Origin: Pseudomonadales bacterium
GTDB lineage: Bacteria > Patescibacteriota > Microgenomatia > UBA1400 > PJMF01
Direction: 5' to 3'
DNA: 64,000 nucleotides
NCBI GenBank assembly: GCA_020632235.1
Contig: JACKFY010000004.1
Location: forward strand, 4,811-68,810
Of the stretch, positions 32,369-60,552 are shown piece by piece; within the stretch, counting starts at the first letter, position 1, and each line of letters starts with the position of its first letter. The notes beneath the pieces were generated by a model. The model was not told the origin of the DNA, ran no database searches, and worked only from the letters and a program-made list of their open reading frames with translations. The position numbers and the translations under genes were made by a program.

Positions 32369-32436
32369 TACTTCCTTCCCCTTGTGAGGGAGCCCCGATG
32401 TGAAATCGGGACGGGAACTCAAGTGAAACATGAGAG

Positions 32437-32514
32437 GGGTTTCTGTCATTTCGACTGGAACAAAGTGGAATGGAGAAATCCCGCTCAGATCTCTCCACTT
32501 ACGGTCGAGATGAC
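32437..32514. repeat. Intergenic long-hairpin repeat element R, copy 1
   Basis: GTCATTTCGAC pairs with GTCGAGATGAC (11 bp) around a roughly 50-nt loop. It is homologous to 44194-44268. Confidence 0.5.
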
Positions 32515-32543
32515 ATACTAGGTTTCAGTTGACGTCACACAAC

Positions 32544-33326
32544 CTACAGTCCAGTGTTTTGCCCGGGCACCACAAAGAAATCTTGCGAGCCGCCACCTTC
32601 GATCTGAGTTTGCGTAGGCACTACTATGCGGTTGAGTTGATCAAGCTTGACTAACACTTCTTCTTGGTCACTCGCAATCTCTGGTAGGGGAGTATCAACA
32701 GAGGTTGTCACGTCTTTGATAAAGTAGTAGGTGCGGGTTTCCAGCTCCGCTCGAAGCACCCCAGCCGAACGAAAGTTGGCTGTTTGGTCGTTTGATTTTT
32801 TTTGTAGTGTGACCTTGGTAAAGGAAGTAAACGGCGCAAACTGCTCGATGATCTGCAGAAAGCTCTGAATAGAGGTAAAGTCACCCTCCAACTCTACATA
32901 TAAATCAAGCGCATCGTAGTCTTCTACCTGACTTGATCGTTTTGTTTGGGCGCTGGCAGTAGCAAGCTCTCCGGGGCTCACCTCAAATGTGCTCAATGTC
33001 ACACCAGACTGATTGGCAGCAGAGCGTAAACTAGAAAGTAGCTCGAGCAAAGGTTTTTTTGAGGGAAGAGCGGCATCAGCCACTTCCGACTGCTCTTGTG
33101 TTTGCTGCTGGACCAGCTGTAATTGATCTCGCTTCTTTTCTAGTACAGCAATCTCTTTTCGTAACGCAGTCGTCTGTTGCTGTTTTTCATACGCCATGTT
33201 TGCTTGGGGAATAGCCACCACAAAGATTAGTAGTGCTGATCCAGCCAATAGAGCAACAGCAGTAAACAAGTACCGTCTGCGTGAAAGGAGTAATTTGTAG
33301 TGAATTTTTTTCTTTGCTGCAGCCAT
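32544..33326 (-). CDS. pilO: Type IV pilus assembly protein PilO-like
   Basis: Single N-terminal TM, coiled coil, and periplasmic domain. It is last in the pilM-pilN-pilO order. Confidence 0.65.
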   Translation of the reverse strand: MAAAKKKIHYKLLLSRRRYLFTAVALLAGSALLIFVVAIPQANMAYEKQQQTTALRKEIAVLEKKRDQLQLVQQQTQEQSEVADAALPSKKPLLELLSSLRSAANQSGVTLSTFEVSPGELATASAQTKRSSQVEDYDALDLYVELEGDFTSIQSFLQIIEQFAPFTSFTKVTLQKKSNDQTANFRSAGVLRAELETRTYYFIKDVTTSVDTPLPEIASDQEEVLVKLDQLNRIVVPTQTQIEGGGSQDFFVVPGQNTGL

Positions 33327-33337
33327 ATCTATCTTTT

Positions 33338-33886
33338 TTATGTTTCTGTAGTCAGGTAGACAGTTAAGTCCATAATGTACCCACCATCAGCAGTTCTCCT
33401 GAGTCCATCCTTTTGTACTTGACGCACCAGAGAGCTTCGCTGATTGGAGAGTGTGTTATATACCTCTTCTAATACAAACACGTCTTTTGCCTGCAAACCA
33501 AACGAGATAAATTGATCTTGCGATGAGTAGCGAATCTCGCTAATACTTACATCTCTGCCAAACGCGTTACTAAAGTAATCGATAGCTTCTTGCTTGTTTT
33601 TCCGCTCACCAAAAAGCTCTGACAATACCGCTACTTTTTGGGCAAAGACTGCGTAAGAATATTCTGCCTCACTCTGTGAGAGAAGCTCTTCGCGCACCGC
33701 TATCTCACGCTCTTCTAGAGCAGTCACAGACTGGCGAAACCACACGTGTGCCAAAATACTCCCCACACTCAATGCTACACACACAAGCAGCACGCCAATA
33801 GCAATGACTTGCTTTTTTTTGTCTTTCTCTGCCACTGCGGCAAATCGTTTTCTGGCAGTGTGAACAAAGTTGATGTTTCGCGCCAT
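33338..33886 (-). CDS. pilN: Type IV pilus assembly protein PilN-like
   Basis: A 182-aa protein with a single TM after a basic N-terminus, positioned between pilM and pilO. Confidence 0.65.
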   Translation of the reverse strand: MARNINFVHTARKRFAAVAEKDKKKQVIAIGVLLVCVALSVGSILAHVWFRQSVTALEEREIAVREELLSQSEAEYSYAVFAQKVAVLSELFGERKNKQEAIDYFSNAFGRDVSISEIRYSSQDQFISFGLQAKDVFVLEEVYNTLSNQRSSLVRQVQKDGLRRTADGGYIMDLTVYLTTET

Positions 33887-33887
33887 G

Positions 33888-34895
33888 CTACACCTCTCTC
33901 ATGAGTAGTCCCATGGCTGGTCCAAAGCTAGCGGTCGTAAGAACAGTGGGTAGTGCTCCCTTGGCGCTGGCAAATGGCGCTGCCACTAGTGTCTCGACAC
34001 CCAGCACCTCAGTGATATGCTCTACCAGCCCAGGCATCACCGCCGAACCGCCAGACAAAATAACACGACTAATAGTCTGGCCACCTGCTTGGTTGGCATA
34101 AAACTGCATAGATTTTTGCACCTCTCCTGTGAGCACCTGCATCGTGGTCAAGATAGCCTCACGCACCTTCCCCTGAAACTGTGACGGGTCAAGCCCATAC
34201 GTGCGCTTGTACTGCTCGGCTTGCTCTGCGGTCAAAGAAAATGATTGAGAGATAGACTTGGTCAGCAACTGTCCACCGTTCAGATGAGACACCACAAACT
34301 GCAGCTCGTCGCCACGCATGACCACAAGCGTCATGGTCTGGGCGCCCAAATGCATGATCAAAGTTGGCGGGTCTTCTGGAGTAAACCCCAGTGAGCGCAC
34401 CAGCGAAAGTGCCTGTGTTTCTACAAGCGTGGGCTCAATACCAATCGCATTAAACATCTCAACGTAGCGTTCAATGTTGTTTTTTCGCGCTCCCACCAAG
34501 AGCACGCGCATGTTTTCTTTACTACTTTTTTCTGGCCTATACAGCACTTGGTACTCTAGCGTCAGCTCATCGGGCGGGATGGGAATGTGTTTTTCAGCCT
34601 GCCACTGAATGGCGGATGCCAGCTCAGCATCGTTGAGTGGCGGTATGGCGATCACCTTGGTCGAGACCACAGTCTCGGGGATTGTCAGGCGCACATCATT
34701 GGTGGGAAACCTGTTGTCAGACCACAGTGAAGAGAGAACTTGGGTCAAACGCTCCAGCGTCGGCTCATCGGCGGGCACTGCGCTACCCACGCTGTTGAAT
34801 GTCTCTATCACTCGCTCAACAACTGGCTGTTTGCCGGGTTTGGCGTGGATGGTTTTGATGGTGTATGAACCAATATCTATGGCAACGGCAGGCAT
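33888..34895 (-). CDS. pilM: Type IV pilus assembly protein PilM (actin-like ATPase fold)
   Basis: N-terminal AIDIGSYTIKTIH... matches the PilM/FtsA-like fold. 335 aa. Confidence 0.85.
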   Translation of the reverse strand: MPAVAIDIGSYTIKTIHAKPGKQPVVERVIETFNSVGSAVPADEPTLERLTQVLSSLWSDNRFPTNDVRLTIPETVVSTKVIAIPPLNDAELASAIQWQAEKHIPIPPDELTLEYQVLYRPEKSSKENMRVLLVGARKNNIERYVEMFNAIGIEPTLVETQALSLVRSLGFTPEDPPTLIMHLGAQTMTLVVMRGDELQFVVSHLNGGQLLTKSISQSFSLTAEQAEQYKRTYGLDPSQFQGKVREAILTTMQVLTGEVQKSMQFYANQAGGQTISRVILSGGSAVMPGLVEHITEVLGVETLVAAPFASAKGALPTVLTTASFGPAMGLLMREV

Positions 34896-34927
34896 GGTGT
34901 ATTGTTTGTATTACTTGCTACATAGGT

Positions 34928-35728
34928 TTAATTAACTTGTTGTATCTCTCCTTCTGCATACAGTGAGTAGTCCATAAATGCAGGAACAGCAGGTAGTATC
35001 CGCTGGGCAGACACGCTGTGCTGCTCGGTGCTGTCTGCACCCTCATTTGCAGTATTCCTGGCAGTAGAAACGATATCATGTGCCTGTACAGTGCCGATCA
35101 CTGTCGTAACCAAGTCGGTACCCGCGTACACGGGGTGCAGTCGCATCTTGAGTGGCGTGAGCGTTGACTGCAAAGGCACACTGTAGCTATTTTTGTACTC
35201 TCCTGATGAAATAGTAGTAGAGCCGTCAAAATCATCGCCTCGAGCATTTCCATTGTTATTATTGGGTTGGCCAATCGCGTGATACTCCACCAAACCATTG
35301 CTGTAGTACACCGCTGCAATAAGAGACGCTCTCTGGTTTATATCTCCTTCCTTTGCCCACTCAATGTCCAGTCGATCACTCGTAAAGCCCTCAAGTTGCA
35401 CCTCGGCTACCTCGCCCTCAAGCAACGATACTTCCAAGGTATCAGTGGGCGTAATGGTGTATGAGCCAGCTGTGTTTTGACCATCATCGGAAAATGAAAC
35501 TGTTTGGGGCCCTGCACCAACAGAAAAATTACCACTCTGCAGTGCTCGTTCTATCCCCGTCTCGGCTGCATTTAGCACCTTGGTTGACTCGCTTTGCTGA
35601 GTGGCTCTGCCCAAGTCATCACTGGTGCGCACCGCTACAGACAGCCCTACAGTCAGCACTACTGCCATTAAAAGTAGTACTATTACCGCAATTTGCCCAC
35701 GCTGCGAGTGTTTCTGACGGATCACCAT
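34928..35728 (-). CDS. PilX-like minor pilin / pilus assembly protein
   Basis: QRGQIAVIVLLLMAVVLTVGLSVA matches the PilX N-terminal hydrophobic segment. Start chosen at the internal Met (ORF track: 35794). Confidence 0.5.
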   Translation of the reverse strand: MVIRQKHSQRGQIAVIVLLLMAVVLTVGLSVAVRTSDDLGRATQQSESTKVLNAAETGIERALQSGNFSVGAGPQTVSFSDDGQNTAGSYTITPTDTLEVSLLEGEVAEVQLEGFTSDRLDIEWAKEGDINQRASLIAAVYYSNGLVEYHAIGQPNNNNGNARGDDFDGSTTISSGEYKNSYSVPLQSTLTPLKMRLHPVYAGTDLVTTVIGTVQAHDIVSTARNTANEGADSTEQHSVSAQRILPAVPAFMDYSLYAEGEIQQVN

Positions 35729-35820
35729 ACCATCTATACTATCCTGTATTGCCATGCAATTGCAATGGGTAGGTAGGTCATGTTGCTGATACACAAAAAA
35801 TACCCTACACTGAGTACACT

Positions 35821-37896
35821 ATGTTGAATACTCTGCGTACCAGATGGCAGTACATGAGCATGCGAAAGCGAATAAAGGCTCTCATTTCTGGCTTTTTTTT
35901 GCTCATACTCATGGTAACCGCTGTCTCGGCGTTAATTGTAGTGCAGCAAAATCAAGAAAACAGGCAAAAAGCATCAGAAATTGATGGCACTACCTGCAGC
36001 ATTGCTTCGTACGCTCAAACCGGCACAAACCTTGTTCCTACTACTATCTTTGATCCAAGTGAACCTATTATTTTTGCTATTACAGTAGAGCAGACTAGAG
36101 GTCCACTACCTATTATTGTAGACGACTATCTCCACGATTTCTTGGCTGCAGGCTACACCATTTCACCCCCACTCTACAGCCCAGAATGTACAGCGCCAGA
36201 GTTTCCCCACACCGATCCCTTTGTCTATCGCTGTAACTGGCTCACGGCCATTCCAGGTGGCAGCATGACCACCTACCTACAGCTCGCTCCACCTATATCG
36301 CCCAGCCCCTCCCTGCCTGGTCAAACCCTTACCAATCAAGTAGAGCTCTTGCCCTGCGAAACCTGTGGTGGACTCGGCAGGCCTGCTAGCTGGACACCCA
36401 CTGTGTCCGTCAATGCAGCAGGGATCAGCGACCCTTCTTGCAGTACCACCATCACCATAACAGAAGAGCCCGTGACGCTGGGTGGTCAAGCCTACTGCAT
36501 AGACCAAGCAACCGGCAACAAACAGTACCAACAGGGAGTACAGATAGGGGAGAGAGCTAGCGAGCACTGGAGCGTGACCACCGATGCAAACGGCAGGTGG
36601 AGCGTGACACGACCAGCAGCTGAAATAAACCCTGACAACTATGCCATTCGTCCGTTTGGTAACAGTGACTTTCCCTACGCTTCTGACGTTATGACAACTG
36701 GTGTAAGCGGTATTTCTTGCCCAGATAGTAATATTGAGGGGCCAGAGCTCACACAAAACAATACTGCGGTTGTTGAGCGGGCTGCTGGCAGCTGCGGCAG
36801 AGCGCTGCCACTCGATACCCTAGATTTCAATTTGGGCTACTGCCCTGCCAATACTACGCCTGGAGTGCAGTGTGACTCTGTCTGCACGCCACCCAACACT
36901 CCAGCAAGTAGTGAAGAAATAGGTGCGCCAATTACTGATGAGTGTGTCCAAGCACTGGGGTCAGAGTATGCCTGCATGCCTGTGGGCACCGAGTACCGCT
37001 GCAGACTCATTGCCGATCCAACGAACGCCAGCTGCAACATCGCACCCACCCCCACCTACTACGACGGCTGGTGGCAGAGTAGAGGAGGACTTGTCTACAG
37101 CGCCCTCGCACTGACCAACGAAGTTCACCAAGACGCCAACCCACTCTTTGGTCTGCTAGCAAGATCATACATAGGTAGCGTCAATCCGAACTCCAGTGGT
37201 ATCGCCCGTGTAGGCAGCACTATTGTCACTTTTGGCAACGCCCAGCCCACCCAGCGAGTACGATCTCAACAAATGGCAAGTGGTAGCGATGCTCTCTCTC
37301 CGCCTAGTCTCACCACCACTATTTCTACCATACTTGCTAACAGTAGCGCTGCTCGTAGCCTTCCTAGCACCCTCACCCAAAAGCCCACAGACTGCACACC
37401 ACTTGATGGTGCGACTGTCTGCACAGCAACAGGCCTCCTGACCATTGATGGCGAACGCTGGATCGTAAACCCAGGGGAAAAGCTTATTATCGTTGTCGGG
37501 GGTGATGTACGCTTTGCGGGCAGTAGAAAGCAAGCTATCTGGCTACAAGACGGTGGCTTTTTTGCCCTGATTGCCAGCGGCACCATCACCTTTGGCGGTG
37601 AGCTGGGCAGCACCGACCACCAGCCGGGTCAGCCAGACGTCCCCCAAACAGACAACTACACTGCTGGTGGCGTGTACCTGGCGGGCCACAACATCGTAAT
37701 AGAGCAAACCAGCCAAGACACCGACAAACAGTTCGTAGGAAACGGCGTCTTTGCCGCAGGCGGGAACATACAGCTGCAGCGCTCATTAGCCTTTGATGGC
37801 AACACCCACCCTGCTAGTCTATTTGTCTACAACCCCCAGCTGTTACTCAATGCTCCTGATTTCTTCTTGGAGGGTTCGGTGGAGTGGCAGCCGTAG
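35821..37896 (+). CDS. Large Cys-rich surface protein (691 aa) with an N-terminal TM anchor and a conserved C-terminal beta-solenoid-like domain shared with the 1070-aa paralog
   Basis: N-terminal TM at RKRIKALISGFFLLILMVTAV. The C-terminal roughly 330 aa begins DGWWQSRGGL and ends NAPDFFLEGSVEW, aligning with the tail of 40188..43391. Confidence 0.65.
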   Translation: MLNTLRTRWQYMSMRKRIKALISGFFLLILMVTAVSALIVVQQNQENRQKASEIDGTTCSIASYAQTGTNLVPTTIFDPSEPIIFAITVEQTRGPLPIIVDDYLHDFLAAGYTISPPLYSPECTAPEFPHTDPFVYRCNWLTAIPGGSMTTYLQLAPPISPSPSLPGQTLTNQVELLPCETCGGLGRPASWTPTVSVNAAGISDPSCSTTITITEEPVTLGGQAYCIDQATGNKQYQQGVQIGERASEHWSVTTDANGRWSVTRPAAEINPDNYAIRPFGNSDFPYASDVMTTGVSGISCPDSNIEGPELTQNNTAVVERAAGSCGRALPLDTLDFNLGYCPANTTPGVQCDSVCTPPNTPASSEEIGAPITDECVQALGSEYACMPVGTEYRCRLIADPTNASCNIAPTPTYYDGWWQSRGGLVYSALALTNEVHQDANPLFGLLARSYIGSVNPNSSGIARVGSTIVTFGNAQPTQRVRSQQMASGSDALSPPSLTTTISTILANSSAARSLPSTLTQKPTDCTPLDGATVCTATGLLTIDGERWIVNPGEKLIIVVGGDVRFAGSRKQAIWLQDGGFFALIASGTITFGGELGSTDHQPGQPDVPQTDNYTAGGVYLAGHNIVIEQTSQDTDKQFVGNGVFAAGGNIQLQRSLAFDGNTHPASLFVYNPQLLLNAPDFFLEGSVEWQP

Positions 37897-37992
37897 GGCT
37901 ATTCCCCTTGTAAGGGGAGACGTCCCGACTTTAGTCGGGGCAGATGGGATGCAAGCTTCCTGTAATGCTCGTAATGTACACTGCGCCCTTGT

Positions 37993-38061
37993 GGGGACGC
38001 CACTGGCTGTGGAACCGTGTCTACGGAACTTGGTTTGCGAGTTCGATTCTCGTCGTCTCCA
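37993..38061 (+). other. tRNA-Ala-like fragment (acceptor stem with G3.U70 and canonical T-arm, but no cloverleaf in the 5' half)
   Basis: GGGGACG...GCGAG-TTCGATT-CTCGT-CGTCTCC-A. A perfect GGAGACG partner also lies at 37919-37925. Confidence 0.35.
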
Positions 38062-38159
38062 CAGGAAAAACTGTTTACTACTTGAAATACAGAGAAAGCA
38101 GAGTAAAATGAATGTCAATTCGTAGACGCGGTTATTTCATACCAATGGAAACCAATCAA

Positions 38160-38190
38160 CCCCTCACCAGCTGGTGAGGGGTTTTGTTTG
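38160..38190 (+). terminator. Rho-independent terminator
   Basis: CCCCTCACC-AGCT-GGTGAGGGG-TTTTGTTTG. Confidence 0.55.
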
Positions 38191-38233
38191 TATCCCCTCT
38201 TTTCAAGAGGGGTGTCCGTCAATTGACGGAAGG

Positions 38234-38347
38234 GGTGTTTAGCATCTCCTCTTTTCAAGAGGGGCATCCTTCACCTGAAAGGTGAGAGGGTGAGGTGTTT
38301 AGCACTCCCTTTCGTAAGGGGACAGGGACATCCCGACTTTAGTCGGG
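38234..38347 (+). repeat. Multi-hairpin structured element E, copy 1 (candidate ncRNA or repeat)
   Basis: Hairpins CCTCTTTTCAAGAGG, CCTTCACC-TGAAA-GGTGAG, CCCTT-TCGT-AAGGG and CCCGACTTTAGTCGGG, plus two GGTGTTTAGCA spacers. It is homologous to 44013-44131 with compensatory stem changes. Confidence 0.5.
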
Positions 38348-38448
38348 GGAGAGGGGTTTCCCTATTGCATTCCAACGTCTCATAGTATATTATGAGAGAT
38401 AGTGTGTTGTAGTAGCGGTATAAACAAACAACACACAGAAAACAAACC

Positions 38449-39678: not shown

Positions 39679-39730
39679 AAATAACTTCTTCTACTTGTCT
39701 TCTTCCTCTTGGCTGGCGTATAGTGTAGTC

Positions 39731-40198
39731 ATGTGGCGTTATATAAAAATAGGTGTAGTTTTTCTCGTTATTTTTTGTGTTGGAATAGGTGGGGCGTATG
39801 TAAGTTTTTCTCAGATTATTCCTAATAAGAACTATGGTAAAAATCAAATCGCCGGCGATAAAATAGTTAAAGACCAAGAACCAACCAATCAAAATGGTCA
39901 ATATATTGCGAGAGGAAAACTAATAAGCTTTATTCCTGAACTAATTATAGTTTCAATTAATAACCAAAAATACTTTTTAAATGTTACTTCTAAAACAAAG
40001 TTTTTTATTTCTCATGTAGATCATAGTGATGGACTAAGTGGTGATCTCATAGAGAACAAAGATATAAGCATGCGTGATTTTGAAAATAAAATTTTAAATA
40101 CTCAACCTTTATTTGTATCGATTGTGTATAAAGAAAATGATACAAATGATGTGAATCAAAAAGAAGCAATTTTTATTAATGCTGCATATGATAAGTAA
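39731..40198 (+). CDS. Hypothetical small membrane-anchored protein (AT-rich gene)
   Basis: MWRYIKIGVVFLVIFCVGIGGAYV TM anchor. AT content is markedly higher than in neighbouring genes. Confidence 0.35.
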   Translation: MWRYIKIGVVFLVIFCVGIGGAYVSFSQIIPNKNYGKNQIAGDKIVKDQEPTNQNGQYIARGKLISFIPELIIVSINNQKYFLNVTSKTKFFISHVDHSDGLSGDLIENKDISMRDFENKILNTQPLFVSIVYKENDTNDVNQKEAIFINAAYDK

Positions 40199-43391: not shown

Positions 43392-43946
43392 ATGAAACAG
43401 CACCACTCTGCTGGGTTTACTCTCATTGAGCTACTCATCGCCACAGCATTAACCGCATTTATCATGGTTTCTGCATCGTACCTACTGGTCTCAACACTCA
43501 GCGCTCGCGGCAAAACGGCAGTCAGGCAGACACTCAAGGCAGAGGGGCAGTTTGTCCAAAACCAAGTAGACACAGCCCTGCGTAGTGCCAAAGCACCCAT
43601 CACCTGCATTACAGATGAAGAAACAGGTGTCGCCTCCACCATTCTCTTTTACAACTCTGCAGGCGAAGCGCACCAGTTTTCCCATCAGCCGCTAGCTGCG
43701 GTAGGCACTCCAATAGACGCCATTTATTATGACAACGACATTCTTGTGTCAGATGCGGTGACCATCACCGATCTTTCATTTCGCTGTGAAAACGCGCGAA
43801 CAGACAGAACTCAAGTGGGCGGTGGTAGCGACGTCTACATCACCACCACGTTCCAGGTGCATAACAAAGATGCAAGTGGTGGAGCGGGCGAGATCTATGA
43901 GTTATTTCGCTCTGGTGTGCTCATCCGCAACACCATCGGCCAGTAG
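43392..43946 (+). CDS. Type IV pilin/pseudopilin with a class III signal
   Basis: MKQHHSAG-FTLIELLIATALTAF prepilin cleavage/methylation motif. Confidence 0.8.
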   Translation: MKQHHSAGFTLIELLIATALTAFIMVSASYLLVSTLSARGKTAVRQTLKAEGQFVQNQVDTALRSAKAPITCITDEETGVASTILFYNSAGEAHQFSHQPLAAVGTPIDAIYYDNDILVSDAVTITDLSFRCENARTDRTQVGGGSDVYITTTFQVHNKDASGGAGEIYELFRSGVLIRNTIGQ

Positions 43947-44012
43947 CCCCCTCACCCAGACTTCTCCACTTGCGGTCGAAGTGACAGACTAGTGTTTAGT
44001 CAAAACAAAAAG

Positions 44013-44131
44013 GTTTAGCATCTCGTCTTTGCAAGAGGAGCACCCTTCACCTTTCAGGTGAAAGGGCGAGGTGCTTAGCTCTTCCCTTCATAAGGGAACC
44101 CCCGATGAAACATCGGGGGACAGGGACATCA
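44013..44131 (+). repeat. Multi-hairpin structured element E, copy 2
   Basis: Same order of hairpins and GTTTAGC spacers as 38234-38347, with covarying stems (CGTCTTTGCAAGAGG, CCTTCACC-TTTC-AGGTGAAAGG, CCCTT-CAT-AAGGG, CCCGATGAAACATCGGG) and a conserved ACAGGGACATC 3' end. Confidence 0.5.
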
Positions 44132-44193
44132 AGCGTGAGCGTGATAGATAGGTTTAAACATTCCCCTTGTAAGGGGAAAACTCGAGCGAAAAG

Positions 44194-44268
44194 GGTTTCT
44201 GTCATTTAGATCCACCAGCTGACGGAGAGAAATCACACCCAGATTTCTCGACTACGCTCGAAATGACG
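44194..44268. repeat. Intergenic long-hairpin repeat element R, copy 2
   Basis: GGGTTTCTGTCATTTAGATC ... CAGATTTCTCGACTACGCTCGAAATGAC is homologous to 32437-32514. Confidence 0.5.
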
Positions 44269-44317
44269 GGGAGGAATGGTCGGTATGACAGGTGGGATTA
44301 GTGGAGAGCATTGACTT

Positions 44318-44357
44318 GCAGTCGTCACTCTGGAGTAAAACGATAGAGTCTGACTGC
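44318..44357. repeat. Conserved stem-loop motif, copy B (GCAGTC-ACTCT-GGAGTAAAACGAT-AGAGT-GACTGC)
   Basis: It shares the 27-nt core CACTCTGGANNNAANCGATAGAGTCT with 15381-15417 and 55343-55382. Confidence 0.55.
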
Positions 44358-44358
44358 C

Positions 44359-44889
44359 CTAATACTGCGCAAACTCTCGGCGTAGCGTTACTTCACGCTC
44401 CTGCGTACCAATGCGCCAGGTGGTTGTCACCAACACCGTGATAGTGCTGCCAGTATTTTCTTCAACTTCTAGCTCTCGGGTAAACTCTGCTCGCAGGTCA
44501 TCATCCATCAAAAATGAACAGGTGTATGCCTGTTGACCAAATGGTGACGTCCAATTAATAAATGCATCTTCTTGTAAAGAGCCATCATCTGTCAAACAAA
44601 TAGTTTGACTTTCTGGTAGTTCATCTGAAAATGCCTGCCAACCATACACGGCACGCGATCGCTGTAGATACTCCATCACGTGTTGTGACTTGGCAGTTGC
44701 TACCTCGCGCATGCGCGCCTCGGCCGAGTTCCGCACACTTTGGGTGAGCACCATAGCAATACCTGTCAACATAATGCCAGAAATAGCCACCGCCACCAAT
44801 ACTTCTATCAGGCCGATGCCAGCTGAGTGGCGTTTTAGTCGAGCAACACGGTCTTTAAAGATCATGGAGATTCCCCTCAGAAGTAACAC
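44359..44889 (-). CDS. Pseudopilin / minor type IV pilin
   Basis: RHSAGIGLIEVLVAVAISGIML variant prepilin motif (G-IGLIE). Confidence 0.65.
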   Translation of the reverse strand: MLLLRGISMIFKDRVARLKRHSAGIGLIEVLVAVAISGIMLTGIAMVLTQSVRNSAEARMREVATAKSQHVMEYLQRSRAVYGWQAFSDELPESQTICLTDDGSLQEDAFINWTSPFGQQAYTCSFLMDDDLRAEFTRELEVEENTGSTITVLVTTTWRIGTQEREVTLRREFAQY

Positions 44890-45442
44890 CTCTACTTCCT
44901 ACCGCAAATGAGTACTCAAGCGTGTCAGACTGCAGACGCACAACACCACCAGAACCAGGTAGGTTGATAACAACATCTAGACCGTCAACAAGGTACTGCA
45001 CATTTCCTGTAGTATGCAGTGTTGCCAGTCCATCAAAATCTACAAAAACCAAATTATCGTATAACACAACAGCGCCGCCTTCCACACAAGACGCATGCAG
45101 TGCTGCACTACTTCCCGAAAGACTTACTTCATACCCAAGTAGTTGGTCGCCTACATCAAGGCAGTCTCTAGGCGTATCCATCGCTTGCACTCTGCGCTGT
45201 GCCTCAAGAAACAGCCCTCGCACCTCTTCCCCAACAGCCCCTACTTTCCTACGCTCGTTAAATGAAATGTACCCCACCAACCCTCCACCTATCAAAACAG
45301 CAGAGATGGCTATGACCACCATCAGTTCGATAAGAGTAAAGCCCCCTCGATGTAAAGAAAAAACATTACTGGCTGGTCGCACAGTAGTACCCTCCGCTAC
45401 CTGCCATATTGCAAACATTATTGCTGTTGCTTTTGTCATCAT
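44855..45442 (-). CDS. Pseudopilin / minor type IV pilin
   Basis: LHRGGFTLIELMVVIAISAVLIGG prepilin motif. The leader is long as called, so the true start may be internal. Confidence 0.65.
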   Translation of the reverse strand: MMTKATAIMFAIWQVAEGTTVRPASNVFSLHRGGFTLIELMVVIAISAVLIGGGLVGYISFNERRKVGAVGEEVRGLFLEAQRRVQAMDTPRDCLDVGDQLLGYEVSLSGSSAALHASCVEGGAVVLYDNLVFVDFDGLATLHTTGNVQYLVDGLDVVINLPGSGGVVRLQSDTLEYSFAVGSRGVTSEGNLHDL

Positions 45443-45788
45443 TTTCTAGATCAGCGCAGAGACAGTACACACCACCAACAGAATAAGAGTAATGATAGGG
45501 AGTTGTTGCTCCTGGGTCAACAGGATAGGGATTACTGAGATACCCACCACTTACAAGTTGTACAACCATATTGACATACCCATTATTTATAGCAATAGGG
45601 TACCCTCCTTCTTCAGATCGATACAGTGCTAACGCCTGGCGTACTGCTTCGATGTCTGCCATGCGCTTGCTGTCACGACTGGCTTTACTCGCGTTGCTGT
45701 ATGACACAAAGCCGATGCCCATCAGTACGGCAATGATGGTCACGGTCACGAGTAGCTCAATCAGGGTAAAACCACGTTGTTGTTTCAT
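45366..45788 (-). CDS. Type IV pilin (GspG/PilA-like)
   Basis: MKQQRGFTLIELLVTVTIIAVLMGIG followed by the ASRDSKRMADIEAVRQALALY pilin block. Confidence 0.8.
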   Translation of the reverse strand: MKQQRGFTLIELLVTVTIIAVLMGIGFVSYSNASKASRDSKRMADIEAVRQALALYRSEEGGYPIAINNGYVNMVVQLVSGGYLSNPYPVDPGATTPYHYSYSVGGVYCLCADLENDDKSNSNNVCNMAGSGGYYCATSQ

Positions 45789-45809
45789 ACCGATGCCCTA
45801 CGCTACCTA

Positions 45810-46241
45810 CTACTGCAAGTTTTTGACACAAAATGCAGAGCCGTCACTCCCACTTGTAAAGCTACAACCAGCATCTGCATTTCCATTTCTGTTTTCTAAC
45901 GCAGCACATGCGCAGTAGTCATATGCTGCACCAGTACCTGTACTCGCGCAGCTGTACACAAATACCCCTGTATTCTTTGGATCTTGAGGGTTTGCCGGCA
46001 ATTCTTCGGAAAGCACGGACGCAGAGCAATCACGAGCATACTCACCATTCACCGCGTAGTACTGCTCTTGGGCAGTTTGGATAGCCTTCATGTCAGCCCG
46101 GCGCTTGGCGTCTCTGGTGCCCTTTTGGGCATTGGTGTAGGCCGCCATTCCCATCGCCATCAAGATACCGATGATAGACACCACTACCAATAGCTCAATC
46201 AGGGTAAAACCACGCATGGATGAGAGTAATTTTTTATGCAT
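45810..46241 (-). CDS. Type IV pilin (GspG/PilA-like) with a Cys-rich C-terminus
   Basis: MHKKLLSSMRGFTLIELLVVVSIIGILMAMG followed by the TRDAKRRADMKAIQTAQEQYY block. Confidence 0.8.
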   Translation of the reverse strand: MHKKLLSSMRGFTLIELLVVVSIIGILMAMGMAAYTNAQKGTRDAKRRADMKAIQTAQEQYYAVNGEYARDCSASVLSEELPANPQDPKNTGVFVYSCASTGTGAAYDYCACAALENRNGNADAGCSFTSGSDGSAFCVKNLQ

Positions 46242-46293
46242 ATAAACCAGCATAGACTACTGGTTTCCGTCGCGCAACTAGCACCAGAAAAAC

Positions 46294-46872
46294 TCACTCC
46301 GTCAAAGCATCACGGGAGGAAGAAAGCTCTGAACCATCCCACACAATAAAGATATGTTTTTGAAAAAAACGAGTCCATTGCGGCAGGTTTTTGTAGAGCG
46401 TTTCAAATGAGACAAGCTCTAGAAAGGATGGCTCGTCACCAAGTACGAGAGAATCGGAGTCTAACACAGCAAAAAGGCTGGGAGGCAACTCACCCTCATA
46501 CACTGTTTGTCTGTTTTGTGCATACGGATAGCACTCTGCCTGGATCAAAAACTGGCGCTCGTCTTCAAACACAACCGAGTACTGTGTTGACACAGGGCTA
46601 AAGGTGTACTCAGAGTTAGTGGTCAGGTCTCGCAGGTACTCAGAGCAAGACTCCACACCACTGCTTTGGGCAGTCGTAATACTATCTATAAATGAGCGGA
46701 TGCCAAAAGAAAAAATTACTTGCTGTGTCAGAAAAAATACGACAATACTACCAACGCTAAGACACGCTATCCAAAACAAAACATATCGCAGTACACGCAT
46801 GTCAAAAGTATGCAAAAGAAAGCCAGGGTCGTCAAGTATGTGCCCTACATACCAAGCTGTGAAAGATACCAC
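46294..46872 (-). CDS. Hypothetical membrane-anchored protein within the pilus locus
   Basis: The internal Met MRVLRYVLFWIACLSVGSIVVFFL gives a single TM. No motif recognised. Confidence 0.35.
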   Translation of the reverse strand: MVSFTAWYVGHILDDPGFLLHTFDMRVLRYVLFWIACLSVGSIVVFFLTQQVIFSFGIRSFIDSITTAQSSGVESCSEYLRDLTTNSEYTFSPVSTQYSVVFEDERQFLIQAECYPYAQNRQTVYEGELPPSLFAVLDSDSLVLGDEPSFLELVSFETLYKNLPQWTRFFQKHIFIVWDGSELSSSRDALTE

Positions 46873-47699
46873 CCCAACAGCGTGTCACCCCATAGTAGAG
46901 AAAACACTGCCCCAGCAATAAGAAATGGCCCAAACGGTACTGCATACTTCATCGTTTTCTTGCCACAAACCATCAATAACACACCAACAACTGCACCGCT
47001 CACAAATGCTACAAAGAGGAGCGCCACCACCTGTGGCCAACCAACAAGTAAGGCCAGAGGCACCATCAACTTAACGTCACCAAAACCAATACCTTTGCCA
47101 CGAGTTGCGTGCCACAAGATAAAAAGAAAACCGCTGCCTACCAGTGCTGCCAAAGCCAGTTGTATGTAGTCTGTTGGCTGCATAATACCAGCTGCGGTCA
47201 AAGCGGTGCGATAGCACAGCGCCAGTACCAAGAGAAGAGCACTCAAGACGTCAGGAATAATGTAGTGCTGCATATCTATCACCACAATCAAGCACAGCAC
47301 TACCCCCACGCACAGCCAAAATAACGGCTGGACCACCTGGAATGGGTTTTGCGATAGCTGAAAAAACAACGAGCCAACCAAGTACCACCACACAAAAAGC
47401 GAACCCATCAAGACCTCTACCACGGGGTGGGTTATGTCTATAGGCTTTTTACACACGCTGCATCTGCCGCCAAGCATCACAAAAGAGAGTAGGGGAATGT
47501 TTTCGTACCAAGTAATAGTATGGTTACAGTGCTCGCAGTGCGAACGCCCCACTTTCCAGCTTTCGCCACTCAGTGTTCGGTACACCACTACGTTTAAAAA
47601 ACTCCCGATAGCAGCACCCAGAAAAAATAACAATACACAGACAAACAACATAGTTAGCATAGTCGTAGCATACAGTAGTGGAGGAGGGGAGAGCAACAA
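46845..47699 (-). CDS. pilD: Prepilin peptidase (A24 family)
   Basis: N-terminal CxxC...CxxC tetracysteine (CEHCNH...CSVC) and a multi-TM body with a conserved Asp region. 284 aa. Confidence 0.85.
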   Translation of the reverse strand: MLLSPPPLLYATTMLTMLFVCVLLFFLGAAIGSFLNVVVYRTLSGESWKVGRSHCEHCNHTITWYENIPLLSFVMLGGRCSVCKKPIDITHPVVEVLMGSLFVWWYLVGSLFFQLSQNPFQVVQPLFWLCVGVVLCLIVVIDMQHYIIPDVLSALLLVLALCYRTALTAAGIMQPTDYIQLALAALVGSGFLFILWHATRGKGIGFGDVKLMVPLALLVGWPQVVALLFVAFVSGAVVGVLLMVCGKKTMKYAVPFGPFLIAGAVFSLLWGDTLLGWYLSQLGM

Positions 47700-47704
47700 A
47701 AAAA

Positions 47705-47753
47705 CCCCTCACCTTGCTTTCTGGTCCAGTCGGCCAGACCACAAGGTGAGGGG
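47705..47753 (-). terminator. Rho-independent terminator/attenuator after the pilin gene. It is a near-identical inverted copy of the rplT terminator.
   Basis: The minus-strand transcript reads CCCCTCACCTTGTGGTCTGGCCGACTGGACCAGAAAGCAAGGTGAGGGG-TTTTTTT. It differs from 17656-17705 by two nucleotides. Confidence 0.7.
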
Positions 47754-47759
47754 AAGTAA

Positions 47760-48341
47760 CTATGGCAAGCAAATAAGCTCATTGCCATCATCGCAGATCA
47801 TACTTTCTGCAGTTTGCCCTACGTCTCCTGGTAAACCTGCATCACACCGCTCTATAGCTTGCGTCTTAAATGCTTGTGACTGTGGCTCAAAACATACATA
47901 GGTAGCGTCACCTGTGCCACCTTCATTGTACACATAGAGAGGTCGAGCGTCAGGATCACTTACCCTCGTTATAAACGTTGATTTTAGCTCATCTGTGCCA
48001 TCACAGGATGCTCCATCACCACCAGCCAATTTTTCAAGTATGCTACACCCAGCACCATCATCAACATTCTCAATTTCAACAAGAGCTGACACAGGGTTGG
48101 CCGTATCATTTGCATCTTCTAGCCAAGGGTAGTAGCCTTTGAAGGCATTATACCTATCCACAGCACTAATAAGTTGCTCTGCATCAGACTGAGAGCTGGT
48201 GTCACGACCTCTGTTGATCTGCTCGACTGGATTGATAGCTGCCAAGACGGCAACTGCCAAAATACCTAAGATAGAGATCACGATCAAAAGCTCAATCATG
48301 GTAAAACCTGCTTGTTTTCTCAGTTTCTGAAGAAATTTCAT
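47760..48341 (-). CDS. Type IV pilin, candidate major pilin
   Basis: MKFLQKLRKQAGFTMIELLIVISILGILAVAV prepilin motif. It is followed by a strong terminator and is the first pilin after pilB/T/C. Confidence 0.8.
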   Translation of the reverse strand: MKFLQKLRKQAGFTMIELLIVISILGILAVAVLAAINPVEQINRGRDTSSQSDAEQLISAVDRYNAFKGYYPWLEDANDTANPVSALVEIENVDDGAGCSILEKLAGGDGASCDGTDELKSTFITRVSDPDARPLYVYNEGGTGDATYVCFEPQSQAFKTQAIERCDAGLPGDVGQTAESMICDDGNELICLP

Positions 48342-48422
48342 ACTCGTTTCCTTTTGTATTGTTACTAATACATACTTCACTCTACAGCATTCTTCAAGAG
48401 TAATGCAAGAGCTAAAAATAGT

Positions 48423-49625
48423 CTAAAACTGCGAGGTCAGGCTGTAGATAGGCATAATGACTGCAATCACCATCAGCCCCACCCCAATGCCCAGCACGAT
48501 CATGATCATTGGCTCGATAGCAGCAGTCATGTTACGCACTGCCTGCTCACTTTCCGACTCAAAGTATTCAGATACTTTGGTCAAGATCTCGTCAAGCTTG
48601 CCTGTTTCTTCACCCACGCGGATCATCTGGTACAAAATGGGAGGGAAGAGCTCAAATCGCTCAAGAGCGGTACTGAGTGCCACACCCTTTTCTACCTCAT
48701 CTGCCGCTTGCCCCAACGCCTCACGATACAGCACGTTGTTGATGCCTTCCGTTACGATATCAAGTGCTTTGAGCAGTGAAATACCTGCTCCTAACAACAG
48801 CGCAATCGTGCGTGCAAACTCGGTGAGGATAATTTTTTTCATCAAGTCACCAAAAATAGGGAGACGGAGCACTGTCTGGGCTATCAGTCTCTGGCCTGCC
48901 TCGGTATTTTTCCAGCGGGTAAAAAACCCTATTCCTATAGCCAAAAGCGCAAGAAAGATCCATTTATACTGTACTAAAAAGTTGGAAGAGCCAATCAATA
49001 TTTTGGTAGGAAGGGGGAGCTCAGCACCAAAGTCTTCATACATAGCGGTCATCTGCGGGATAACAAAAATCATCATGATAAACCCCACCACTATCATCGC
49101 TATCACCACAATAGCAGGATAGATCATCGCTCCCTTGGTTTTTGAGCGAAATTCATGTGACTTTTCTAGATTGATGGCAAGCCTATCAAGCACCTGGTCC
49201 ATCACACCGCCCGTCTCACCTGCATTTACTAGTTGCACATACAGCCGAGAAAATACTTTTGGATGCTTGCCCAGCGCCTCGCTAAAGGTCATGCCGCCCT
49301 CAACATCTTGCAAAATAGTAGCAATGAGGGCGGCAAACTCACCTTTGTTTTGGCGCACCAAGATAGAAAGCGCACTCGCCAGGGGCAATCCTGCCGTGAT
49401 CATTGTTGAAAGTTGCCTGGTAAAGCGCACCACTTCTGCTGTCTTGATGCCACCACTAATATTTTTCAAGAAAGCAAACGAAGAAGAGGTGAGGGGAGTC
49501 AGCTTGATAAGCAGCAGGCCCCTATTGGTAATCTCAATGGCCGCATGACGCTCTGTCTGGGCTTCTACCTTTCCCTTGACTATGTTGCCAAAGGTATTTT
49601 TGGCAGTGTAGTTAAAAAATGGCAT
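48423..49625 (-). CDS. pilC: Type IV pilus platform protein PilC (GspF family)
   Basis: A 400-aa protein with duplicated GspF domains and three TM helices. Confidence 0.9.
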   Translation of the reverse strand: MPFFNYTAKNTFGNIVKGKVEAQTERHAAIEITNRGLLLIKLTPLTSSSFAFLKNISGGIKTAEVVRFTRQLSTMITAGLPLASALSILVRQNKGEFAALIATILQDVEGGMTFSEALGKHPKVFSRLYVQLVNAGETGGVMDQVLDRLAINLEKSHEFRSKTKGAMIYPAIVVIAMIVVGFIMMIFVIPQMTAMYEDFGAELPLPTKILIGSSNFLVQYKWIFLALLAIGIGFFTRWKNTEAGQRLIAQTVLRLPIFGDLMKKIILTEFARTIALLLGAGISLLKALDIVTEGINNVLYREALGQAADEVEKGVALSTALERFELFPPILYQMIRVGEETGKLDEILTKVSEYFESESEQAVRNMTAAIEPMIMIVLGIGVGLMVIAVIMPIYSLTSQF

Positions 49626-49628
49626 TAC

Positions 49629-50702
49629 CTACTCTTTCACTTGACTTGTTTTGTTAAGCAATCTATCCATATCGTCTTTACGAAATGAGTACTCTTGGGC
49701 AACCAGCGACGAAATACTACCCTGCTGCACTAGTGTCTGCAGGTGGGTTTCCAAAAGCATCATCTGCTTGCTGGCAGACGTCTGGATAACATTATCAATT
49801 TGGTAGGTCTTTGCCTCGCGGATTAAGTTGCGAATAGCAGGCGTTCCCAACATAACTTCGAGGGCTGCAGTACGCTTGCCATTCAAGGTCGGCACCAGCC
49901 GTTGTGACACAATGGCTTGTACAGTAGAGGCAAGCTGCTGGCGCACCTGAGACTGCTGGGCAGCAGGAAAGACATCGATGATACGGTCTATGGTCTGGGC
50001 TGCAGTGGCCGTGTGAAGCGTGGCAAACACCAGGTGGCCCGTTTCTGCCACCGTGATGGCAGAGGCAATTGTTTCAAAATCACGCATTTCGCCCACCAAC
50101 ACCACATCGGGGTCTTCGCGCAGAGCAGATTTGAGTGCAATATCCCACCCGTGAGTATCTTGGGTTATCTCCCGCTGAGAAATAACACTTTTTTGTGGCT
50201 CGTACACAAACTCAATTGGGTCTTCAATGGTCAAGATATGCTCAGCACGCGCATGATTAATCTCGTTGATGATCGCCGCCAAACTGGTCGACTTTCCTTC
50301 ACCCGTAGGGCCAGTGATCAAGATAATACCTTGTTTGTACTGAGTAAAGTCATGAAACACTTTGGGTAGGTGTAACTCTTCGAGTGTCTTTATTCTATTG
50401 GGAATGAGGCGCAAAGCAGCAGAGAGTCCCCCTTGCGACAAATACACATTAACGCGAAATCTTCCCTTATCCAAGTACTGGTAGGCAAAATCAAGCTCTT
50501 TGTTGACCTCCACATAGTCTTTTTGCTCTTGGGTTAACAAAGGGTGAATGAGCGTCTCACTCTGCTTTTCTGTCAAAACAGGTGCCCCATCGACTGGCTT
50601 GAGAACACCCTCTACTCGAATAGTAGGCGGACTCCCAGGCACAATATGAATGTCAGAGCCTTCGCTATCGATCAGTTGTTGGAGTATGTCAAATGTGTTC
50701 AT
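49629..50702 (-). CDS. pilT: Twitching-motility (retraction) ATPase PilT
   Basis: Walker A GPTGEGKSTSL, His box, and the 357-aa length typical of PilT. Confidence 0.85.
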   Translation of the reverse strand: MNTFDILQQLIDSEGSDIHIVPGSPPTIRVEGVLKPVDGAPVLTEKQSETLIHPLLTQEQKDYVEVNKELDFAYQYLDKGRFRVNVYLSQGGLSAALRLIPNRIKTLEELHLPKVFHDFTQYKQGIILITGPTGEGKSTSLAAIINEINHARAEHILTIEDPIEFVYEPQKSVISQREITQDTHGWDIALKSALREDPDVVLVGEMRDFETIASAITVAETGHLVFATLHTATAAQTIDRIIDVFPAAQQSQVRQQLASTVQAIVSQRLVPTLNGKRTAALEVMLGTPAIRNLIREAKTYQIDNVIQTSASKQMMLLETHLQTLVQQGSISSLVAQEYSFRKDDMDRLLNKTSQVKE

Positions 50703-50735
50703 CGTGGGCTTTCTTGCTGTTCTTGATACACCTAT

Positions 50736-52511
50736 CTAAATTTGTGCTACCCTGAGTACTTCCTCTATTGTGGTAATGCCTTCAAGTGCTTTGAGATACC
50801 CGTCTTGCTTCATCAACAACATACCATCTTTTATTGCAAGTTCTTCTAGTTCGCTGGCAGGCTTTTGTTGCATGATACACTTGCCTATCTCTTCGGTAAT
50901 ATTCATGACCTCAAAAATAGCTACTCGACCTTTGTACTCTGGCTCTGTTTCTGGTCGCTCCTTTTTGGCCCGGTACAGTTTAATAGCGTCTGGTGTCACG
51001 TTGTGCTGCTGACACCATAAGCCAAGTCTCTCTCCCAGTACCGAGCGAATGTCATCAACCACTGCTTTCTCTGGTGTGTACTGCTCTGTGTACTCGGGGT
51101 TAATACGTCGTAAAACACGCTGCGCCATGGTCAATGTCATCGAAGACGCAAGTAAAAATGGCTCGGCGCCCATATCCATCAGGCGAGGAATAGCGCCCGC
51201 AGCAGATGAGGTATGAAGGGTCGAGAACACCAAGTGGCCAGTCAGTGAGGCTTGAATAGCCAGCTCTGCTGTTTCACTGTCACGGATCTCTCCTACCATG
51301 ATAATGTTGGGGTCTTGGCGCAAGAACGAGCGCAGGCCAGAGGCAAACGTCAGGCCTGCTTGTGGGTTGGTCTGCACCTGGTTGATACCTACCATTTGGT
51401 ACTCAACAGGGTCTTCAAGCGTCATGATATTCACTTTTGGCGAGTTGATGGTGTGCAAAACAGAGTAGAGTGTGGTCGTTTTTCCAGAACCAGTTGGGCC
51501 GGTCACCAGGATAATGCCGTGCGGCACCTTGATGGCATCTTGTACGTGGTTGAGTGCCAACCCAGTAAGCCCAAGTTGCTCAAGAGACGGCACCGTTGCA
51601 TCTTTTTTCAACAGACGCATTACGATTTTCTCTCCATCAACAGTGGGCAACGTCGAGACGCGAAGGTCAACTTCTTGATCGCCAGCAGTAAAGGTAAACC
51701 TGCCGTCTTGCGGCACGCGCTTTTCATCTATTTTTAAACCAGACAAAATCTTGATGCGTGACACCACCGCCTCGTGCACACTCGCGGGCAGAATAAGTTT
51801 TTCTGCCAGAATGCCATCAATGCGGTAGCGCACTCTCGTTTTTTCTTCTTGTGGCTCGATATGAATGTCAGACGCGCGGGCTTTGATAGCAAACTCTACA
51901 ATGGTCTCGACAATCTTGGTGATTGGTGCCTGACGAATTGTTTCGCCAGACAGTGACGAGAAGTTTTGCTCTTGTTTTTTTGTTTCTTGTATTTGACTGG
52001 TTTGTTCAAGTGCGGCAGAAACTTCATTTGACAAATTTTGAGAGTACCGCTCGGCTATCAAACGCTCTATCTCTGATTTACTTGCATAGTGAGCAAGAAT
52101 GCGAAACCCACTTTTTTGCTCGGCAAAATCGATAGCCAGTACGTCAAGCGGATCAACCATCGCCACCGATAGTTGTTTTTTCTCACCGTCAACAGCAAAC
52201 GGCAGCATCTGGTACTGCTGGGCAACTGACTCGGGTAAAGCCGAAAGCGCCTCTGGCGAAACACCGGTGCTTGCAATCGCCACAAACGGCACGTTGTGAA
52301 AGGTACTCTTGGCTCTGGCGATGTCTTCTTCGCTGGCAAGAGATTTCTCTCTGAGCACATCATCTGGTTTTTTGCCTGTCTGGATCGTTTCAAGCGTAAT
52401 CAAGTTAACGTCATCAGCAGTTATCACGCCCTGTGCAACCAATACATCCAAGATTGAGGAGTAGGCTCCAGGGGCAGCTGGTGAGGATGATTGGGCAGGT
52501 TGATTCATCAC
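50736..52511 (-). CDS. pilB: Type IV pilus assembly ATPase PilB (GspE family)
   Basis: N-terminal GSPII_E_N-like domain, Walker A GPTGSGKTTTL, and a CxxC tetracysteine. Confidence 0.9.
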   Translation of the reverse strand: MMNQPAQSSSPAAPGAYSSILDVLVAQGVITADDVNLITLETIQTGKKPDDVLREKSLASEEDIARAKSTFHNVPFVAIASTGVSPEALSALPESVAQQYQMLPFAVDGEKKQLSVAMVDPLDVLAIDFAEQKSGFRILAHYASKSEIERLIAERYSQNLSNEVSAALEQTSQIQETKKQEQNFSSLSGETIRQAPITKIVETIVEFAIKARASDIHIEPQEEKTRVRYRIDGILAEKLILPASVHEAVVSRIKILSGLKIDEKRVPQDGRFTFTAGDQEVDLRVSTLPTVDGEKIVMRLLKKDATVPSLEQLGLTGLALNHVQDAIKVPHGIILVTGPTGSGKTTTLYSVLHTINSPKVNIMTLEDPVEYQMVGINQVQTNPQAGLTFASGLRSFLRQDPNIIMVGEIRDSETAELAIQASLTGHLVFSTLHTSSAAGAIPRLMDMGAEPFLLASSMTLTMAQRVLRRINPEYTEQYTPEKAVVDDIRSVLGERLGLWCQQHNVTPDAIKLYRAKKERPETEPEYKGRVAIFEVMNITEEIGKCIMQQKPASELEELAIKDGMLLMKQDGYLKALEGITTIEEVLRVAQI

Positions 52512-59557: not shown

Positions 59558-59566
59558 TTGTATAGA

Positions 59567-60517: not shown

Positions 60518-60552
60518 ACAGAAATAAAGACAATACAGAGCTGAGAAATAGA

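Follow-up and report, generated by a model that had tools for sequence, protein, structure and literature searches.

A predicted beta-solenoid protein family encoded beside a minor pilin in secretin-less type IV pilus loci of Patescibacteria

The Patescibacteria in cultivation live fixed to host cells, with pili as the best-supported attachment device; we know of no host-recognition molecules outside the Saccharibacteria. Among better-described pili, PilY1 has a conserved C-terminus and a variable N-terminus, is encoded with minor pilins (often translationally coupled) and occurs as several paralogues (PMC13190605). The competence pilin ComZ of Thermus thermophilus carries a solenoid resembling the ice-binding protein 4NU2, and the case has been made that it is located at the tip of the pilus and bound there to PilA2, the neighbouring pilin (PMC6561018), and cyanobacterial PilX, with the same type of solenoid, has been proposed as a tip plug replacing PilY1 (bioRxiv 10.64898/2026.02.12.705559). 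A single-membrane bacterium encodes beta-helix adhesins, the tapirins, next to its pilus locus (bioRxiv 10.1101/359786). Published pilus loci from Candidate Phyla Radiation (CPR) bacteria contain no pilQ (PMC7143001; PMC11623550). Here we describe the pilus locus at positions 32544-52511 of a 64,000-nucleotide stretch of contig JACKFY010000004.1 (assembly GCA_020632235.1), hereafter the window, and a large family of proteins with a predicted solenoid domain, two of which are encoded within this locus.

The region holds 19 open reading frames (ORFs) and two long non-coding stretches (Table 1), and the remaining ORFs of the window read as housekeeping genes. It is a standard type IVa pilus cluster of a Microgenomates-type Patescibacterium and has no secretin: a CPR cell has a single membrane and would therefore lack one, and none of the ORFs scanned across the 64-kb window contained a PilQ or PilP domain. 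The first-pass annotation of this DNA had listed pilM-pilN-pilO, a pilX-like gene, at least six prepilins, pilD and pilC-pilT-pilB, with neither pilP nor pilQ, and had taken this to fit a monoderm, CPR-like envelope. The machinery is complete: all of these genes are where it placed them, the core by Pfam match, and the envelope type agrees with the Patescibacteria and Microgenomates relatives of the pilus genes and with the published CPR loci. The backbone is divergent, with pilX-like, pilM, pilN and pilO in one direction and pilB-pilT-pilC-pilA / pilD-unknown gene-four pilins facing it. Between the two blocks lies a variable module of an orphan protein, a small membrane-anchored protein, a large solenoid-domain protein and a GspJ-like minor pilin; the window holds the large protein twice, in versions of 691 and 1070 amino acids.

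Closest in composition are locus 1 of Nanosynbacter lyticus TM7x and the Microgenomates Ch65 locus, which have the same PilB/T/C, PilM/N/O and PilD, one major and about five minor pilins, no PilQ, and large accessory proteins proposed there as tip adhesins (PMC11623550; PMC7143001). The candidate adhesins of TM7x, PilX1 and PilX2, resemble pilins and have jelly-roll or beta-propeller heads, whereas the candidates in the window are secreted, non-pilin proteins with a predicted C-terminal beta-solenoid. A secretin-less pilus has already been published for CPR (PMC7143001; PMC11623550) and is not new. What sets this locus apart is a large unannotated solenoid-domain family and a conserved three- to four-gene module in Patescibacteria pilus loci; we found no description in the literature of this clade-specific module, in which a small membrane protein and a solenoid protein are combined with a GspJ-like pilin.

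Two giant Cys-rich proteins had been noted in the first pass, and the 691- and 1070-residue proteins contain 18 (2.6%) and 38 (3.6%) cysteines, respectively. They align over their last ~290 residues only (34% identity, E 4e-32), and their N-terminal parts are orphans. In the longer protein, the signal peptide has a predicted cleavage site VHA/E, and the N-terminal region comprises four Cys-containing repeats of ~110 amino acids, one myxo_disulf repeat and a Pro/Thr linker. Neither protein had a Pfam, NCBIfam or PDB sequence match above threshold, and a word-indexed homology search with the 691-residue protein returned only itself. Finding the family took an exhaustive profile search: a profile of the common C-terminal domain, run against 1.84 billion cluster representatives, recovered 985 of them at E ≤ 1e-3 and 406 at E ≤ 1e-10. 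The two window proteins are thus members of one large unnamed family of at least 985 protein clusters.

Host proteins of the domain range from 183 to 1603 amino acids, and the domain ends no more than 12 residues from the C-terminus in 144 of 148 representatives, closing with the conserved motif F-x-[FY]-R-P-D-[FL]-x-x-N-x-P ... W-Q-E-V-N. Among 104 full-length representatives, 71 have a signal-peptide-like start, none has a prepilin motif, and cysteine makes up 4.8% of residues ahead of the domain vs 0.7% inside it. Searches of PDB sequences with the domain profiles returned nothing. Pfam DUF7305 was matched weakly by four of 19 family members (best E 2.7e-5) and by neither window protein; the one family member with a listed score reached 25.8 bits, under the 27-bit gathering score. 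DUF7305 is at most a distant relative.

The domain core (201 residues, 34 family sequences) was modelled confidently, with a predicted local distance difference test score of 87 and a predicted template modelling (TM) score of 0.85 as a beta-solenoid with a flanking helix, and a longer model of 277 residues agrees with it. Searched against the PDB with Foldseek, its nearest neighbours are DUF3494-type ice-binding proteins: 6eio (TM 0.48/0.44, root-mean-square deviation 4.5 Å), 5b5h, 6bg8 and 4nu2. Thermus ComZ (6qvi) ranked 2, 5 and 7 in the fold searches, and the tapirin C-terminal domains 4wa0 and 6n2b were also among the matches. A relationship between the solenoid domain and the pilX-like protein of the same locus was considered and rejected (hhalign probability 0.1).

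The genomic context of the family was surveyed by a scan via the domain, with a tight 6-sequence alignment and one genome per species. This returned 61 loci, mostly from Patescibacteria with several from Chloroflexota (Aggregatilineales, Caldilineaceae, Anaerolineales). Pilus genes lay within 10 kb of the family gene in 25 of them, giving a binomial probability of 2e-19 if the background is taken, roughly, to be 4%. In about 21 of these 25 pilus loci a pilin gene of the 184-amino-acid type directly follows the family gene in the same orientation, and the stop codon of the one often overlaps or abuts the start codon of the other; in the window, the pilin gene starts at the base right after the stop codon of the 1070-residue gene. 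The window gene order recurs in most of the 25 loci, the usual order being pilO<pilN<pilM<pilX-like / >family gene(s) >184-aa-type pilin / <176<195<140<147<unknown<pilD<pilA<pilC<pilT<pilB, and in more than 20 other species the family is found at this very place and in this gene order. As in the window, two family genes are present in four of the loci. The 61-locus sample was selected through the family itself; a second scan, of metagenome contigs, was anchored on PilM, and here a family gene stood immediately 5′ of the 184-amino-acid-type pilin in 11 of the 25 loci holding that pilin. The family gene is a frequent, precisely placed and optional part of the pilus locus.

A further gene often travels with the family. 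Directly upstream of 43 of 70 family genes, and co-oriented with them, is a small ORF whose product has a single membrane helix, at its N-terminus; these ORFs have a median length of ~197 amino acids, often overlap the start of the family gene, and occur outside pilus loci and in Chloroflexota too. The AT-rich small ORF remarked on in the first pass (29.6% GC) has the same position, size, topology and overlap, which counts against its earlier reading as non-pilus cargo. It has no detectable sequence similarity to the other small ORFs, and a profile of nine of these proteins scores it at 3.6 bits. Upstream again, many loci have a further gene of 350-960 amino acids that is orphan-like, with no signal peptide or known domain. 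In the window, a 409-residue ORF fills the slot of this variable gene. Across the loci compared, the four-gene layout is thus conserved, and the sequences of its first two genes turn over completely.

Several family copies are found in Chloroflexota, at L006, L008 and L012 (three loci of one Aggregatilineales genome) and also at L017 and L028. No pilus genes were detected within 10 kb of any of these five, and L017 and L028 have a small membrane-anchored ORF upstream of the family gene. The module is therefore not confined to Patescibacteria.

On balance, we lean towards reading the solenoid-domain proteins as pilus-borne adhesins with a PilY1-like division of labour. The analysis shows what the genes are, how large the family is, where the domain sits, how the neighbouring genes are arranged and what fold is predicted; docking, tip location and adhesion we infer, as follows. 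The large proteins would cross the membrane via the Sec pathway, and the conserved C-terminal solenoid would dock on a minor-pilin priming complex, made of the 184-residue pilin and the pilX-like cap, and so reach the pilus tip. The hypervariable, disulfide-rich N-terminal parts would then bind a host cell or surface, after which PilT-driven retraction would draw the cell in towards what has been bound. Alternative heads for the same pilus would come from paralogues elsewhere in the genome, and a possible role of the small membrane-anchored partner is to retain the large protein at the membrane or to load it there.

Four observations weigh against this reading. The predicted fold has no significant structural match (best Foldseek E 0.07, TM ≤ 0.48). 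About 60% of family genes are away from pilus genes. In 14 of the 25 PilM-anchored loci with the partner pilin there is no adjacent family gene, the pilin there abutting the pilX-like gene; the large protein is therefore not an obligatory part of the pilus. Finally, the 691-residue copy is not followed by a pilin, and its membrane anchor looks uncleaved.

The resemblance to PilY1/PilC is one of organisation: the family proteins are also non-pilin and Sec-exported, with a variable N-terminus and a conserved C-terminus, and are encoded beside a minor pilin. The C-terminus of PilY1, however, is a beta-propeller (PF05567), to which the large window proteins have no match at E ≤ 0.1, whereas the family fold is a predicted beta-solenoid. 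Because the folds differ, the family is an analogue of PilY1 and not a member of its family. ComZ and cyanobacterial PilX may share with it the fold class (a triangular, ice-binding-like beta-solenoid) and the association with the pilus tip, and like it are encoded beside a pseudopilin-like minor pilin. Their solenoid is an insertion within a pilin fold that carries a pilin helix at its N-terminus, in contrast to the predicted C-terminal solenoid of a non-pilin protein here, and the structural similarity is weak (ComZ E ≥ 0.45), with no sequence similarity. The tapirins of Caldicellulosiruptor are secreted, non-pilin adhesins with a C-terminal beta-helix domain; they differ in having no sequence relation to the family and a fold-match probability of 0.02, and they bind cellulose.

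More tentatively, and as a possibility we would stop short of calling probable, the family might be the missing PilY1-equivalent of single-membrane bacteria that have no PilY1 (Patescibacteria and Chloroflexota), with paralogous Cys-rich heads on one tip-docking domain and a small membrane-anchored loader forming the main host-recognition repertoire of these episymbionts. If the solenoid-domain proteins are pilus-borne adhesins, the hypervariable heads would be host-range determinants for a very large part of bacterial diversity, and adhesins could be located in any metagenome simply by the sequence of the conserved docking domain. They would also be a third way to cap or arm the tip of a type IV pilus, the PilY1 propeller and the pilin-fused ComZ/PilX solenoid being the other two.

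The alternative that best survives is that the C-terminal domain serves as a general envelope anchor or export domain in single-membrane bacteria, its wall- or S-layer-bound adhesins or enzymes acting independently of the pilus and their genes merely accumulating in a variable junction of the pilus locus. Most family genes are outside pilus loci, with several per genome and Chloroflexota included; many pilus loci have no adjacent family gene; and the small membrane-anchored partner accompanies family genes outside pilus loci too, all of which favours an anchor. The terminal position of the domain and its conserved end motif are equally in keeping with an anchor, sorting and anchoring domains being typically terminal, but a solenoid of 200-290 amino acids is far larger than known C-terminal sorting signals, and no match to known wall-binding domains such as SLH, LysM or CWB was found. 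Placement is harder to accommodate. In pilus loci with downstream sequence, the gene is always immediately 5′ of one specific, co-oriented minor pilin, and random accumulation does not explain such strict adjacency. We regard this alternative as unlikely, while continuing to take it seriously.

A different explanation concerns the segment at about 37.9-44.4 kb, which could be a horizontally acquired island within a minimal pilus operon, the protease, small ORF and adhesin being unrelated cargo. This bears on the first-pass view that pilus genes are interleaved here with non-pilus cargo in a composite island, a view that is not supported, both large proteins belonging to one family that recurs in more than 20 other species; its adhesin part is nonetheless plausible. 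The protease in question is the 409-residue ORF. Its motif HEIGHIFGLEH (HExxHxxGxxH), at about residues 258-268, stands, but the earlier identification as a metzincin protease goes further than the matches allow: M54, M10 and reprolysin are all below their gathering scores, the archaemetzincin match is 25.8 bits vs a cutoff of 145, and the best PDB match has an E-value of 0.059. Among 5.8 billion proteins only a self match was returned, and a look-up of contigs with the exact sequence gave only a short Logan contig of the same organism (SRR12358676). Only this ORF and the 167-residue small ORF are without a sequence homologue in 141 related loci, jackhmmer searches included. The orphan genes occupying the same slot in 10 other loci have no peptidase domain. 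One of these ten (L066:6841-8145, minus strand) contains HEVGH, and the other nine are without a peptidase signature.

The non-coding DNA around this segment was another first-pass observation, put at about 1 kb; the two intergenic stretches, 37897-38448 and 43947-44358, amount to 964 nucleotides packed with short GC-rich hairpins and fold far better than shuffled controls. The first stretch contains a terminator-like hairpin (38158-38183) and a decayed element resembling a transfer RNA (tRNA) at 37991-38061 on the plus strand, whose T-arm (GCGAG-TTCGATT-CTCGT) is perfect and whose acceptor stem has 7 bp. It was rejected as a functional tRNA or transfer-messenger RNA, ARAGORN reporting it (as tRNA-Arg ACG) at 80% stringency only and Rfam matching tRNA-Sec at E 0.67; possibly it is what is left of a former integration site. 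A repeat of 87 nucleotides made of three small hairpins occurs in both stretches (38237-38323 and 44013-44099, 5776 nucleotides apart) with 83% identity, far better conserved than the adjoining coding paralogues (34% amino-acid identity). Related hairpin units (CCCCTTGTRAGGG, CCCCGATG..ATCGGG and GGGTTTCTGTCATTT) lie at 32369-32543, downstream of pilO. Together, these repeats may be intergenic palindromes similar to repetitive extragenic palindromic elements.

An island would account for a GC content that is lower across 38-40 kb (0.41 overall, 0.42 in the metzincin gene and 0.30 in the small ORF), for the tRNA-like element at the left edge, for direct repeats bracketing the segment at 38237 and 44013, and for a metzincin gene and small ORF without homologues anywhere searched. 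Set against this, no syntenic pair is better conserved across more than 20 species than the 1070-residue gene and its pilin, the partner pilin belongs to the core of the locus also when the family gene is missing, other loci hold an orphan gene and a small membrane-anchored ORF at the same place, and there is no integrase or transposase in the segment. The repeats, with related units outside the segment at 32369-32543, may be ordinary intergenic palindromes. We consider acquisition as an island improbable; the GC dip, the tRNA-like element and the 87-nucleotide repeat do leave room for genes in the slot to have been replaced or duplicated locally.

Least of all do we expect a secretion or DNA-uptake pseudopilus whose solenoid proteins either are secreted along with the metzincin, in the manner of type II secretion cargo, or act in natural competence as a ComZ-like DNA receptor: weak GspG/H/J and ComG-type scores of the minor pilins, the DNA-binding ComZ as the closest pilus-related structure (PMC6561018), the proposal that CPR pili take up DNA (PMC7143001) and a putative ComM-like gene at 919-2418, read from sequence alone, speak for it, but the presence of PilT fits a retractile pilus better than a pseudopilus for secretion, a signal peptide is absent from the metzincin protein, the ComZ match is not significant and ComZ is a pilin while the family proteins are not, and large, variable Cys-rich heads fit adhesion better than DNA binding.

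The pilins and core components are those of an ordinary type IVa locus. Six ORFs have an N_methyl domain above threshold together with G/F(T/G)(L/M)IE motifs (class III: G-1, F+1, E+5). Weak NCBIfam matches are the sole source of the GspJ-like label of the 184-residue pilin. Among 80 PilM-anchored loci, the pilX-like ORF is directly upstream of pilM in essentially all that have sequence there. Its N-terminus, RG/QIAVIV (cleavage after G), has no Glu5; capping pseudopilins also lack Glu5. The 182-residue ORF has no Pfam match and was called PilN because of its position between pilM and pilO and its conservation there, homologues holding the same position in related loci with E-values down to 3e-33. 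PilT homologues are likewise found at the same position in related loci. The membrane protein at 46294-46872 has no Pfam or NCBIfam match and is 192 amino acids long vs about 300-320 in its relatives; the window copy may be truncated.

Table 1 Features of the pilus locus, in window coordinates
Feature	Coordinates	Strand	Evidence and remarks
pilO-like alignment protein	32544..33326	-	PF04350 E 3e-7; kept after pilN in related loci
pilN-like, single transmembrane helix, 182 amino acids	33338..33886	-	between pilM and pilO
pilM	33888..34895	-	PF11104 E 2e-45
pilX-like pseudopilin, candidate cap subunit	34928..35794, likely start 35728	-	PilX_N E 0.0036, below threshold
Family member 1, 691 amino acids	35821..37896	+	N-terminal membrane anchor, orphan Cys-rich N-region, predicted C-terminal beta-solenoid (37063-37893)
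Hairpin-rich intergenic DNA after the 691-residue gene	37897..38448	.	fold z = -7.5 vs shuffled controls
Orphan with metzincin zinc motif HEIGHIFGLEH, 409 amino acids	38449..39678	+	GC 0.42, no signal peptide
Small N-terminally membrane-anchored ORF, 167 amino acids	39695..40198, likely start 39731	+	GC 0.296, overlaps start of the 1070-residue gene
Family member 2, 1070 amino acids	40179..43391	+	Sec-type signal peptide, predicted C-terminal beta-solenoid domain (42528-43388)
Minor pilin, 184 amino acids, G/FTLIE	43392..43946	+	N_methyl E 8e-7; weak GspJ/ComGF-like NCBIfam matches
Hairpin-rich intergenic DNA between convergent genes	43947..44358	.	fold z = -3.8 vs shuffled controls; repeats D2, D3, D17
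Minor pilin, G/IGLIE, weakly PilV-like	44359..44889	-	Pfam N_methyl, NCBIfam
Minor pilin, G/FTLIE, weakly GspH-like	44855..45442	-	Pfam N_methyl, NCBIfam
Pilin, GspG/PilA-like, 4 Cys	45366..45788	-	Pfam N_methyl, weak NCBIfam
Pilin, GspG/PilA-like, 6 Cys	45810..46253	-	Pfam N_methyl, weak NCBIfam
Conserved membrane protein between minor pilins and pilD	46294..46872	-	jackhmmer: 32 related loci, same position
pilD prepilin peptidase	46845..47699	-	PF06750 (A24_N_bact) E 2e-28 and PF01478 (Peptidase_A24) E 2e-15
Intrinsic terminator 3′ of pilA, before pilD	47700..47746	-	imperfect hairpin, 13-bp outer stem, then U-run
pilA, candidate major pilin, leader MKFLQKLRKQAG/FTMIE	47760..48341	-	N_methyl; homologue at this position in related loci
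pilC platform protein	48423..49625	-	T2SSF E 3e-66
pilT retraction ATPase, 357 amino acids	49629..50702	-	T2SSE E 9e-45, no PilB N-domain
pilB extension ATPase with MshEN N-domain	50736..52511	-	T2SSE E 3e-123, MshEN E 1e-15

A terminator after pilA is the usual means of expressing pilA far above the downstream genes. A strong terminator between the candidate major pilin and pilD had been proposed from the letters, and computation bears it out, the hairpin and U-run having a folding energy of -41.1 kcal/mol (z = -5.9). The hairpin (CCCCTCACCTTG..., 47695-47738) has an 80%-identical copy at 17646-17689, after another gene, which points to a common terminator family. A separate imperfect palindrome of 40 nucleotides, GCAGTC.TCACTCTGGA...AACGATAGAGTCTGACTGC, is present in three intergenic regions (44318-44357, 55343-55382 and 15378-15417) at 70-100% identity, with one copy adjoining the gyrB/ppa junction, and could be a common regulatory or terminator element.

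The closest relatives of every pilus gene are in assemblies named Patescibacteria, Microgenomates, Woesebacteria, Pacebacteria or Shapirobacteria. The NCBI entry for the 691-residue protein is a hypothetical protein of a metagenome-assembled 'Pseudomonadales bacterium', and dozens of related assemblies are also labelled 'uncultured Pseudomonadales', one with an isolate name containing 'PATE'. Gene content and nearest relatives indicate Patescibacteria, and the 'Pseudomonadales' label looks like a database mislabel.

Two observations concern the window outside the pilus locus. At 17733-19595 (plus strand), a PheS-like ORF of 620 amino acids has, as read from its translation, an apparent N-terminal extension resembling an AlaX-type editing domain, with HTAGH. 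At positions 58001-64000 the GC content falls to 0.385-0.41, and this stretch holds orphan ORFs of 158 and 770 amino acids without a Pfam match, a tRNA-Ala (62836-62913) and, at 63416-63997, an ORF with the look of a tyrosine recombinase; an element integrated at tRNA-Ala is one possible explanation.

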